A DNA stretch of 39,438 nt. Source: Escherichia coli (GTDB lineage: Bacteria > Pseudomonadota > Gammaproteobacteria > Enterobacterales > Enterobacteriaceae). Where the stretch lies: NCBI RefSeq assembly GCF_003334335.1, contig NZ_QOWQ01000041.1; one strand, given 5' to 3'. The notes under the pieces are model-generated. The model made no database searches and had not been told where the DNA came from. It saw only the letters and a program-made list of their open reading frames with translations. Below are positions 469 to 3,381 of this stretch, piece by piece (within the stretch, counting starts at the first letter, position 1; every line of letters begins with the position of its first letter). Made by a program: the position numbers and the translations under genes.

Positions 469-1052
469 TGGCATTCAGAATGAGTGAACAACCACGGACC
501 ATAAAAATTTATAATCTGCTGGCCGGAACTAATGAATTTATTGGTGAAGGTGACGCATATATTCCGCCTCATACAGGTCTGCCAGCAAACAGTACCGATA
601 TTGCACCACCAGATATTCCTGCTGGCTTTGTGGCTGTTTTCAACAGTGATGAGGCATCGTGGCATCTCGTTGAAGACCATCGGGGTAAAACGGTTTATGA
701 CGTAGCGTCAGGGGACGAGTTATTTATTTCTGAACTCGGTCCGTTACCGGAAAATGTTACCTGGTTATCGCCGGAAGGGGAGTTTCAGAAGTGGAACGGC
801 ACAGCCTGGGTGAAGGATACGGAAGCAGAAAAAATGTTCCGGATCCGGGAGGCGGAAGAAACAAAAAACAACCTGATGCAGGTAGCCAGTGAGCATATTG
901 CGCCGCTTCAGGATGCTGCAGATCTGGAAATTGCAACGGAGGAAGAAACCTCATTGCTGGAAGCCTGGAAAAAGTATCGGGTGTTGCTGAACCGTGTTGA
1001 TACATCAACTGCACCTGATATTGAGTGGCCTACGAACCCTGTCAGGGAGTAA
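468..1052 (+). CDS. tfa: Tail fibre assembly protein (lambda Tfa-like chaperone)
   Basis: 194-aa ORF; [54 protein letters not shown]... is near-identical to lambda Tfa as I recall it. ATG overlaps the stf stop (TAATG), suggesting translational coupling. Confidence 0.9.
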
Positions 1053-1101
1053 TCATTGGGATTATGCCGCAGCACGTCTTAAGCAAGAACGTGCTGCGGT
1101 T
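888..1101 (+). repeat. Direct repeat copy A (tfa 3' end plus downstream hairpin)
   Basis: About 214 bp, roughly 85-90% identical by eye to 1937-2150, same orientation. Confidence 0.8.
1067..1099. terminator. Hairpin between convergent tfa and methyltransferase genes
   Basis: Perfect 11-bp stem ccgcagcacgt / acgtgctgcgg with an 11-nt loop. A T-run follows on the + strand after about 10 nt (tattttttcc), so intrinsic-terminator function is plausible but not classic. Confidence 0.5.
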
Positions 1102-1106
1102 GGATG

Positions 1107-1775
1107 CTATTTTTTCCCTGAAGCGGAAAACATTACTACAGTACCTTGAACCTTGGTTTTAACATTCTCGAAATGCTCTGAGAGTATATGTGTTAAGCCT
1201 TCTTCGGAATCTTTTGTGTTTGAAAAGATGCCTTTCTGATTGTAAATGCGCATCAGTTTTTGACCGAAGCTATTGTGCACAACTCCATCGCCAAGAATTG
1301 TGGCTCCGTATAGAGTTCCATCGTCAGTTAAGGCCTGCGCCGCATTGCGTATTACACAGCTTTTTGTAGATATATTTCCAGGCAGGCAGTGAAGAAGGTA
1401 AAACATGGAAATGGAATCAAATTGACCATGTAACGCCGCGGGATAAGGTTCAAAAACATCATGGCTAATTTTATGTTTAATTTTTGATTCCCCAGCCCTT
1501 GTAGATGCCGCGTTCAGGCTAGCTTCGTTCAAATCCATTAAAGATATCAGACTACTCTCAGGTACGTGAGTAAGGTAAAACCCAGTTCCAACACCAATAT
1601 CCAGATGGTTGTTACCTACATGTTCCAGATAGTGTGGAAGAAGGTGTTCCTTTGTAGGACATCCCCATGCAAGCCGATTTGATACTCCCAAAACCCACCA
1701 GTCATAAAGCTTTAGGGTAAGTGGTGTGTAAATTTTAGCCCCATCATCTGTGTTTTTTTTCATTGATTTCACCAT
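1107..1775 (-). CDS. Class I SAM-dependent methyltransferase-like protein (prophage cargo, substrate unknown)
   Basis: 222-aa ORF with a glycine-rich motif I (LDIGVGTGFY) followed by acidic/hydrophobic motifs (SISMFYLLHCLPG, LTDDGTLYGATILG) typical of the Rossmann-fold MTase superfamily. No DPPY/NPPY or PCQ DNA-MTase motif. Looks AT-richer than the core genes. Start may be the first ATG or the MKKNT ATG. Confidence 0.65.
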   Translation of the reverse strand: MVKSMKKNTDDGAKIYTPLTLKLYDWWVLGVSNRLAWGCPTKEHLLPHYLEHVGNNHLDIGVGTGFYLTHVPESSLISLMDLNEASLNAASTRAGESKIKHKISHDVFEPYPAALHGQFDSISMFYLLHCLPGNISTKSCVIRNAAQALTDDGTLYGATILGDGVVHNSFGQKLMRIYNQKGIFSNTKDSEEGLTHILSEHFENVKTKVQGTVVMFSASGKK

Positions 1776-1936
1776 GTTATAGTTTTATTTGTGAATTAAA
1801 TCAATTATGGCGATGAATTACAAGGGGTTAAATGCTGCCGCAGCATAGCGATATTGAAATAGCCTGGTATGCTTCGATACAGCAGGAGACGAATGGCTGG
1901 AAGACCGTCACCACACAGTTCTACATCCAGGAATTC

Positions 1937-2100
1937 AGTGAGTATATTGCGCCACTGCAGGATGCTGTAGATCTGGAAATCGCAACGGAGGAAGAAAGAT
2001 CGTTGCTGGAGGCATGGAATAAATATCGGGTATTGTTGAATCGTGTTGATACATCAACTGCACCGATATTGAGTGGCCTGCAAATCCTGTCAGGGAGTAA
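1937..2100 (+). pseudogene. Tail fibre assembly gene 3' remnant with frameshift
   Basis: Encodes ...[43 protein letters not shown], homologous to the Tfa C-terminus. A 1-nt deletion (cacctgat to caccgat) shifts the frame before the conserved DIEWP end. No N-terminal tfa sequence upstream. Confidence 0.8.
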
Positions 2101-2150
2101 TCATTGGGATTATGCCGCAGACACGTCGTATGCAGGAACGTGCTGCGGTT
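1937..2150 (+). repeat. Direct repeat copy B (degraded tfa 3' end plus hairpin)
   Basis: Matches 888-1101; hairpin stem retained with mismatches. Confidence 0.8.
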
Positions 2151-2214
2151 AGTTTGTAAGCTTTCGATAGTGGTTGTTATTTTTGCCCTTATTTGTTCCG
2201 GAGGCCATGGTTCA

Positions 2215-2385
2215 ATGGTCCGTCTGCCCCCTGTGGTGATGTCAGCAAAATCAGCCACTGCGCGAACCACAATAGCCCGGGAAGATGCTGAAGATCACCA
2301 GGTAAAGCTGTCAGCGCAGAAACTGGAAGAACTGCTCGCATCAATGGTTAAGGATGAGGTTGATCGCAATGATGGGATTTATTGA
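2215..2385 (+). CDS. Hypothetical small protein (57 aa) in prophage terminal region
   Basis: ATG at 2215 preceded by GGAGG about 10 nt upstream; a T-run lies about 90 nt downstream (2478-2486). No recognisable motif; coding status uncertain. Confidence 0.3.
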   Translation: MVRLPPVVMSAKSATARTTIAREDAEDHQVKLSAQKLEELLASMVKDEVDRNDGIY

Positions 2386-2698
2386 CGTCAGCGAGAGCAG
2401 AAGGAAGAACTGAATAACCTGAATGATTTACGCTCAATCAGAGCGATGATGATTGGCAGTAATTAGCGGTCAATTTCGGTTTTTTTGGCTGTGCGCTCCC
2501 CGCCCAGCATTGCGCGTCAATTAGCCCCCAAAAAAACGAAAAAGTTACAATCAAGTAAAAAATTCCTTCTGCAAAACTAAAAAAGATTTCAATAAAATCA
2601 GACAGTTAAAAACATAAAAAAAGGTACAAAAAAAACATCTCAAAGTCTTGTTTTTTGCTTCAAATACAATTGGTTATTGTGTTTTTTGAAACCTACCA

Positions 2699-2815
2699 GT
2701 GTGGTACATGGATATCGATACCACCGCCAATTATAAGCTGGGCGGTGCACAGCAACACGATAGCGTACGCCTCGATCCGTGGGTGTTTATGTTCTCAGCA
2801 GGATATCGTTTTTAA
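2699..2815 (+). pseudogene. ompW: ompW 3' remnant (last ~38 codons), 5' part displaced by prophage
   Basis: Frame gives VWYMDIDTTANYKLGGAQQHDSVRLDPWVFMFSAGYRF-stop, matching the OmpW C-terminus as I recall it. Upstream sequence in this frame hits a stop and does not resemble ompW. Sits about 60 bp from the convergent yciE end, as in K-12. Confidence 0.85.
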
Positions 2816-2829
2816 TTCCGCACAAAAAC

Positions 2830-2850
2830 GACCCCGTAATATACGGGGTC
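2830..2850. terminator. Intrinsic terminator of the yciGFE operon (shared with ompW remnant)
   Basis: Stem gaccccgt / acggggtc, 5-nt loop; on the - strand it is followed by GTTTTTGTG. Confidence 0.7.
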
Positions 2851-2874
2851 AATAAGGACATGGTATAAAGGGTA

Positions 2875-3381
2875 TTATTTCTTCGCTTCTACGCCATCAG
2901 TTTCAGAGCGAATTAAAAATTTCTCAGTTGTTTGCGGAATATTCTGAATCAGCCAGTCGGCCATTTGCTTTTCCTCATTTAAAATCGCTTCGATGGTTGG
3001 AATTGAAGCTGTATCACCGGCATTTTTTGCTGCTGCTAATAGTGAGGTGTAACAGGCGATTTCAAATTGCTCGAAGACATATCCGCTAATAGAGCCTTTG
3101 ACTATTTCATCAGAAGGGAATATACCACCGATTGACTGCCCAAGCGCAGCCATTTTACTCATGGAATCTTTAATGACTGAACGTGAAATGTCATTACGAT
3201 CAAGAATAGTTTCCAGTTGAACAATCTGGTTTTTGGTTTCACTAAGATGTTGTTCAATACGAGCGCGTAGTTCAGGATAATTATCTATACGGCTGGCCAT
3301 GGATTCAAGCATAGATTCGGCTTGCTTTTCCATTGCGTGGGCGTCACGTAACCAGTCATGATAATGTTCAATACGATTCAT
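2875..3381 (-). CDS. yciE: Ferritin-like DUF892 stress protein YciE
   Basis: 168 aa, MNRIEHYHDWLRDAHAMEKQAE... recognised as E. coli YciE. Confidence 0.93.
   Translation of the reverse strand: MNRIEHYHDWLRDAHAMEKQAESMLESMASRIDNYPELRARIEQHLSETKNQIVQLETILDRNDISRSVIKDSMSKMAALGQSIGGIFPSDEIVKGSISGYVFEQFEIACYTSLLAAAKNAGDTASIPTIEAILNEEKQMADWLIQNIPQTTEKFLIRSETDGVEAKK

Follow-up and report, generated by a model that had tools for sequence, protein, structure and literature searches.

The question raised by this locus is whether a short open reading frame (ORF) close to the end of a prophage is a small accessory gene in its own right or a fragment of a degraded one, and the preliminary description of the DNA had allowed both. 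The window, by which is meant the whole stretch of 39,438 nucleotides analysed here, comes from Escherichia coli (contig NZ_QOWQ01000041.1). It holds the attR end of the prophage only, the rest being chromosome (yciE, yciF, yciG, the trp operon and beyond). The answer developed below is that the ORF is very probably a non-functional fragment of a DUF4376-family phage tail-fibre chaperone gene, as judged from its alignment with intact members of that family.

The ORF and its setting at the attR end

The ORF lies on the + strand at 2215-2385, with its ATG at 2215-2217 and its TGA at 2383-2385, exactly where it had been placed, and the peptide is identical to the one then quoted. The length of 57 amino acids given for it belongs to a real frame but includes the stop codon, and the product has 56 residues. 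The Shine-Dalgarno sequence previously credited to it is also present, as GGAGG at 2200-2204, 10 nt 5' of the ATG, a spacer at the long end of the useful range. The neighbours had been correctly recognised: a frameshifted tfa gene is found upstream at about 1925-2100, and the DNA downstream, which had been called AT-rich, has 24.7% GC over 2551-2696 compared with 49.8% for the whole window. The placing of the ORF at a prophage end is borne out as well. Identity to the ompW gene of strain K-12 begins at 2697, and lambdoid prophages integrated at ompW with a 121-bp att sequence have been described (PMC8112680), so that this is the true attR end of the prophage; at 2697..2817 PGAP records an OmpW fragment, and beyond it lies the bacterial chromosome. 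The features of the region, with their coordinates in the window, are as follows.

1925..2100, + strand: frameshifted remnant of a lambda-type tfa gene, a pseudogene according to PGAP, sharing 86-95% identity with the last part of the intact tfa (876-1072)
2101..2196, + strand: 3' flank of a lambda-type tfa cassette, with a hairpin at 2114-2148; it repeats 1053-1116 and is collinear with the flank in rl0044
2197..2466, + strand: DUF4376 (PF14301/PHROG 1141) pseudogene remnant, the last ~89 codons of ~190, with an internal stop
2200..2204, + strand: Shine-Dalgarno-like GGAGG, which the alignments place at the recombination joint, where the tfa 3' flank meets the truncated DUF4376 gene
2215..2385, + strand: the reported ORF, 56 codons and TGA; a stretch of the remnant that happens to be open, starting at an internal Met codon and matching internal PHROG positions
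2383..2385, + strand: in-frame nonsense TGA, at a Gln or Arg codon (CAA, CAG or CGC) of the intact homologues
2386..2466, + strand: 26 stranded sense codons and the ancestral TAG (RQREQKEELNNLNDLRSIRAMMIGSN, stop), aligned with RQREMKGELNNLEDLRSIREMAISSN and its stop
2467..2550, + strand: 3' non-coding flank inherited with the DUF4376 gene, within the SerU-LTIIb blastn match 2213-2550
2551..2696, no strand: AT-rich phage arm of attR, 24.7% GC, with K-12 homology absent before 2697
2697..2817, + strand: 3' end of ompW, the att of ompW-integrating lambdoid prophages, 100% identical to K-12 ompW

Homology to the DUF4376 family

The preliminary description could match the ORF to no known family, which proved to be wrong. 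Searched alone, the 56 residues match an interior stretch of two longer phage profiles: positions 185-239 of the 268 in PHROG 7703, with E 4.6e-14, and positions 111-165 of the 194 in PHROG 1141, "tail fiber protein", with E 2.6e-9. The homology does not end at the TGA. When the frame is read past it to the TAG at 2464-2466 (DRNDGIY, stop, RQREQKEELNNLNDLRSIRAMMIGSN, stop), the read-through sequence matches PHROG 1141 with E 3.7e-20 over profile positions 111-191 of 194, and PHROG 7703 with E 7.5e-25. BLASTP aligns the read-through without gaps to residues 106-192 of SerU-LTIIb stf2, with 56 of 87 residues identical (64%) and E 1e-31; the alignment crosses the TGA and runs to the end of that 192-residue protein, whose last residues are DRNDGIYQRQREMKGELNNLEDLRSIREMAISSN. 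The comparison with Rac-SA53 tail4 agrees with this alignment through the stop. At the nucleotide level, blastn against phage genomes places the region inside SerU-LTIIb stf2 (a match that spans window positions 2213-2550), Rac-SA53 tail4 and, in phiP27, the last of the tail fibre genes.

A full-length homologue contains the Pfam domain DUF4376 (PF14301) at residues 73-177 (E 2.8e-15). The 83-residue read-through gave no significant match in Pfam-A, the fragment being too short to reach significance; a match of the same sequence to DUF5646, at E 0.026, was dismissed. NCBIfam yielded no match for either the fragment or the full-length homologue, a PDB sequence search with the intact homologue returned nothing at E <= 1, and an Rfam scan of 1000-3000 found no family overlapping the ORF. 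In place of a complete DUF4376 protein of ~190 residues, the locus retains residues ~106-192 with a TGA among them, and the ORF itself, at ~110-165 of ~190, covers roughly half of the Pfam domain. On these alignments the ORF is a descendant of the DUF4376/PHROG 1141 family without being a functional member of it.

The same comparisons dispose of a chance origin. Frames of similar length are common in the neighbourhood, non-coding frames nearby containing ORFs of 85 and 111 residues, so that a length of 56 residues is by itself no more than chance would provide. What sets the ORF beyond chance is its homology, in the PHROG matches and in the BLASTP alignment of the read-through. The idea that it arose in a non-coding spacer and has no protein-coding ancestry is already refuted by this highly significant in-frame homology to a phage protein family; moreover, the divergence between remnant and homologues is structured by codon, with dS well above dN. 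We give it practically no credence.

The start of the ORF is explained by the same alignments, in which the ATG falls on a Met/Leu codon inside the ancestral gene: the corresponding codon is ATG in SerU-LTIIb and CTG in Rac-SA53 and ETEC1717. Local RNA folding around the GGAGG and the ATG is no different from that of shuffled sequences. The ORF thus runs from an internal codon to a nonsense codon, and this, with the PGAP pseudogene call, counts against its reading as an accessory gene. The more cautious suggestion made at the same time, that it might be a fragment of a degraded gene, is confirmed, since the N-terminal ~105 codons are gone and homology continues in frame past the TGA. It had also been said that the ORF would lose its claim to be a gene if it belonged to a longer disrupted one, and this is what was found.

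The feature is already known. RefSeq/PGAP annotates window 2197-2466 as pseudogene DLJ62_RS26565, "DUF4376 domain-containing protein", noting that it has an internal stop and lacks its N-terminus; the sequence in NZ_CP029574.1 is 100% identical over window 2100-2700, and this is the same feature, with no difference between the two. PGAP likewise calls a pseudogene in O157:H7 SS52 (SS52_RS34325) and in ST131 (HHM37_RS25675).

Intact homologues and their arrangement

Intact relatives are found in Rac-SA53 (tail4, ALP46893.1, 187 residues), SerU-LTIIb (stf2, ALP46936.1, 192 residues), ETEC1717 (WP_089636883.1, 193 residues) and phiP27 (tail fiber protein), in each case directly after a side-tail-fibre gene. 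The remnant resembles the SerU-LTIIb gene in the same frame and collinearly over the last ~87 residues, with 64% amino acid and ~75% nucleotide identity, and it resembles the intact genes also in lying just inside attR. The closest parallel in position is ETEC1717, where the intact copy belongs to a prophage at ompW, as in the window, and the order is fibre gene, the 193-residue DUF4376 gene, then rha and ash in the opposite orientation, and an ompW fragment. The order fibre gene, DUF4376 gene, att recurs in Rac-SA53 and SerU-LTIIb at att sites other than ompW. The window copy differs from all of these in having lost the first ~105 codons, in standing without a cognate fibre gene and in carrying the in-frame TGA. 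In ETEC1717, Rac-SA53 and SerU-LTIIb the stop of the preceding fibre gene and the start of the DUF4376 gene overlap, whereas in the window the remnant is preceded by the tfa remnant and its hairpin, an arrangement that offers no translational coupling to a cognate fibre gene. No intact gene of near-identical sequence to the remnant came to light; the closest ones found, P0025 and P0028, are 73-78% identical, and P0025 adjoins smpB.

The att-proximal segment has a history of its own. In the ST131 and ETEC1717 prophages rha and ash separate the DUF4376 gene from the ompW att. Both are missing from the window, where the 3' flank at 2467-2550 is SerU-LTIIb-like, so that this segment too is a mosaic.

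Experiments have shown that DUF4376 proteins whose genes follow fibre genes are required fibre chaperones in the Alteromonas phages V22 (gp27) and A5 (gp9) (PMC7289586, PMC10579305) and in Campylobacter CJIE1 (PMC7882524). They have in common the Pfam domain, a gene directly 3' of the fibre gene, and a need for them in making a functional receptor-binding fibre. From the shared domain and synteny we infer that the E. coli DUF4376 proteins are fibre chaperones too. The remnant is related to the V22, A5 and CJIE1 proteins at the level of the Pfam domain only, and as the window copy is a fragment, their activity cannot be assumed for it.

The recombination joint and the tfa modules

The joint between the tfa flank and the DUF4376 remnant falls at about 2197-2213. 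Homology to the tfa 3' flank, seen in rl0044 and more weakly in lambda, stops at ~2204, and homology to the intact DUF4376 genes starts at ~2199-2213. In rl0044 the tfa gene is intact, and after it come exactly the 3' flank seen in the window and the same truncated DUF4376 sequence. The fibre gene of the window is paired with its own intact lambda-type Tfa, at 468-1052, and the DUF4376 remnant is consequently left without a cognate partner. Lambda-type Tfa (lambda orf-194) has the same role and position, as a chaperone gene after stf; it belongs to a different family, with no sequence relation to the ORF detected, and represents a replacement module.

The hairpin at 2114-2148, ~65 nt upstream of the ORF, is terminator-like (dG -20.8 kcal/mol, z -2.76), and a terminator scan gave a match at 2131-2147. 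A GCCGCAG...CTGCGG hairpin follows tfa twice in the window, at 1066-1100 and at 2114-2148. A copy of it also occurs in lambda (NC_001416, 24161-24219), in the b region between ea47 and ea31 and far from lambda tfa, and the hairpin may stand at a boundary where tail-fibre modules have recombined repeatedly. The first copy in the window (1066-1100) has a weak Rfam match to the 3' end of CssrB.

Together with the hairpin, the last ~190 nt of tfa are duplicated, at 876-1116 and 1925-2165, with 77-95% identity. The two tfa ends bracket a gene for a class I SAM-dependent methyltransferase (1107-1775, - strand) and a dinI fragment, an arrangement that, from the repeats, looks like insertion of cargo by recombination at the tfa end. 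Rfam reports IS009 (RF02111) at 1855-2058 on the + strand with 112.3 bits (E 1.5e-26), just under the gathering score of 117; the match overlaps both the dinI fragment on the - strand (~1850-1930) and the remnant of tfa. PGAP also calls a 45-residue "hypothetical protein", WP_001309429.1, at 1025-1162 on the + strand. This frame, which takes in the tfa stop, the hairpin and the 3' end of the methyltransferase gene, convergent with it, is probably spurious.

Distribution and variation

Among 5426 complete E. coli genomes, ~1050 carry the remnant, and these include O157:H7, O104:H4, O111 and ST131 strains. Four copies were aligned (the window, O157:H7 SS52, ST131 and rl0044), and all four have the 5' joint in common. 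The TGA is common to the first three, and the ORF is 100% identical among the window, ST131 and O157:H7, which are distant lineages; such identity would also be compatible with selection since the truncation. In O157:H7 the joint sits in front of unrelated upstream DNA. The 3' ends are of two types, one shared by the window and SerU and the other by ST131 and ETEC1717. The copy in rl0044 (contig L005, 2405-2764), in a prophage at the Rac/uspF site next to uspF and ompN, is a mosaic: it is identical to window 2199-2334 at 136 of 136 positions and is then Rac-SA53-like (110 of 122), and this copy, whose 3' half is of the Rac-SA53 type, has no internal stop. Its crossover lies at ~2325-2334, in a shared CTGGAAGAACTG stretch.

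Such exchanges bring in the idea that the DNA is kept for a role in cis, as a patch of homology for the exchange of tail-fibre and att modules among lambdoid prophages. The rl0044 mosaic with its crossover in the shared stretch, the two types of 3' end and the unrelated DNA before the joint in O157:H7 speak for this idea. Use in recombination nevertheless follows from homology as such and is no evidence of selection for it, and the idea is compatible with a neutral pseudogene while adding nothing to that reading. We regard a selected role in cis as very improbable.

A dN/dS of 0.21-0.35 was obtained for the remnant against intact homologues, compared with 0.05-0.41, mostly 0.12-0.18, among intact genes. 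This value mainly reflects divergence older than the truncation, with at most a hint of relaxation; on the period after truncation dN/dS is silent, since the ORF does not differ among the copies in the window, ST131 and O157.

Variants of the 56-residue product in the databases carry many singleton substitutions, some at positions conserved in the family, and to judge by these they look like drift. Broken forms also circulate: P0038 is frameshifted and P0039 truncated early, while P0034 and P0035 share a 78-nt in-frame deletion between GGAAGAACTG repeats that removes the TGA. The deletion is explained by the direct repeat GGAAGAACTG, which occurs in the window at 2325-2334 and again, 78 nt away, at 2403-2412.

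The 83-residue read-through proteins P0016-P0018, from metagenome contigs L009-L011, were considered as stop-free copies and rejected, as the DNA of these contigs has the TGA. Their Tyr-Trp-Arg is a gene-calling artefact in which TGA was read as Trp. More than 1000 contigs have database entries for the 56-residue product, under the names "hypothetical protein" or "putative tail component".

Expression and possible function

A scan of the + strand for promoters gave three sites in 1.9 kb, where 4.0 were expected, and none lies 5' of the ORF. A PADLOC search for defence families had no hit at E <= 0.1. The attributes by which a moron or defence gene might be recognised, namely its own promoter and terminator, an intact conserved frame and a match to a defence family, are not those of this ORF.

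These results bear on the possibility that a functional small accessory protein of the moron type, for example a domesticated chaperone fragment, is translated from the ATG at 2215 by way of the GGAGG. The Shine-Dalgarno-like motif and ATG form a plausible start context, the identical ORF recurs in many lineages and in about one genome in five of those counted above, and several annotation pipelines call it a gene. Set against this are a start at an internal codon, an end at a nonsense codon and in-frame homology beyond it; the retention of only about half of the Pfam domain, which by itself does not pass in Pfam; the lack of a match in PADLOC or NCBIfam; the want of a promoter, with a terminator-like hairpin upstream; the circulation of frameshifted, deleted and truncated variants; and the verdict of PGAP. 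An accessory protein is accordingly judged very unlikely. A more particular proposal, that the fragment made from the GGAGG and ATG is a dominant-negative decoy, acting against tail-fibre maturation in superinfecting phages that depend on DUF4376 chaperones, appears even less probable; if true, it would help to explain why roughly one in five complete E. coli genomes carries an identical fragment.

Proposed origin

The reading of the ORF as a chaperone-gene fragment suggests the following course of events. The ancestor was an ompW-integrating lambdoid prophage with a gene of ~190 codons immediately after its side-tail-fibre gene, just inside attR. A host-range module comprising lambda-type Stf and Tfa would then have recombined in, presumably displacing the former fibre gene along with the 5' half of its chaperone gene; what is left is the 3' 270 nt (~89 codons), joined to the 3' flank of the stf-tfa cassette. 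In this remnant a TGA has replaced a Gln or Arg codon, 27 codons ahead of the original stop. Later, in the lineage of the window, the methyltransferase gene and the dinI fragment would have been inserted between duplicated tfa ends. On this scheme the GGAGG is likely to be a by-product of the recombination joint, and the ATG an internal codon of the old gene. The remnant would do nothing as a protein, for a cognate fibre and the N-terminal half are missing and only about half of the DUF4376 domain is left. Its wide spread would reflect hitch-hiking between prophages, its persistence and breadth being attributed to physical linkage to attR and to the recombinogenic tfa flank.

Significance

The biological weight of the ORF is small: it is best seen as a gene fossil from the replacement of a tail-fibre module. 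For annotation, the deposited 56-residue products and the metagenomic 83-residue read-through products should be treated with care. Searches for small ORFs should likewise reckon with the fact that a recombination joint before an internal Met codon can mimic a Shine-Dalgarno sequence and ATG. For the history of prophage ends, the window records serial replacement of host-range modules, in the order intact stf-tfa, methyltransferase cargo, tfa remnant, DUF4376 remnant and attR in ompW.
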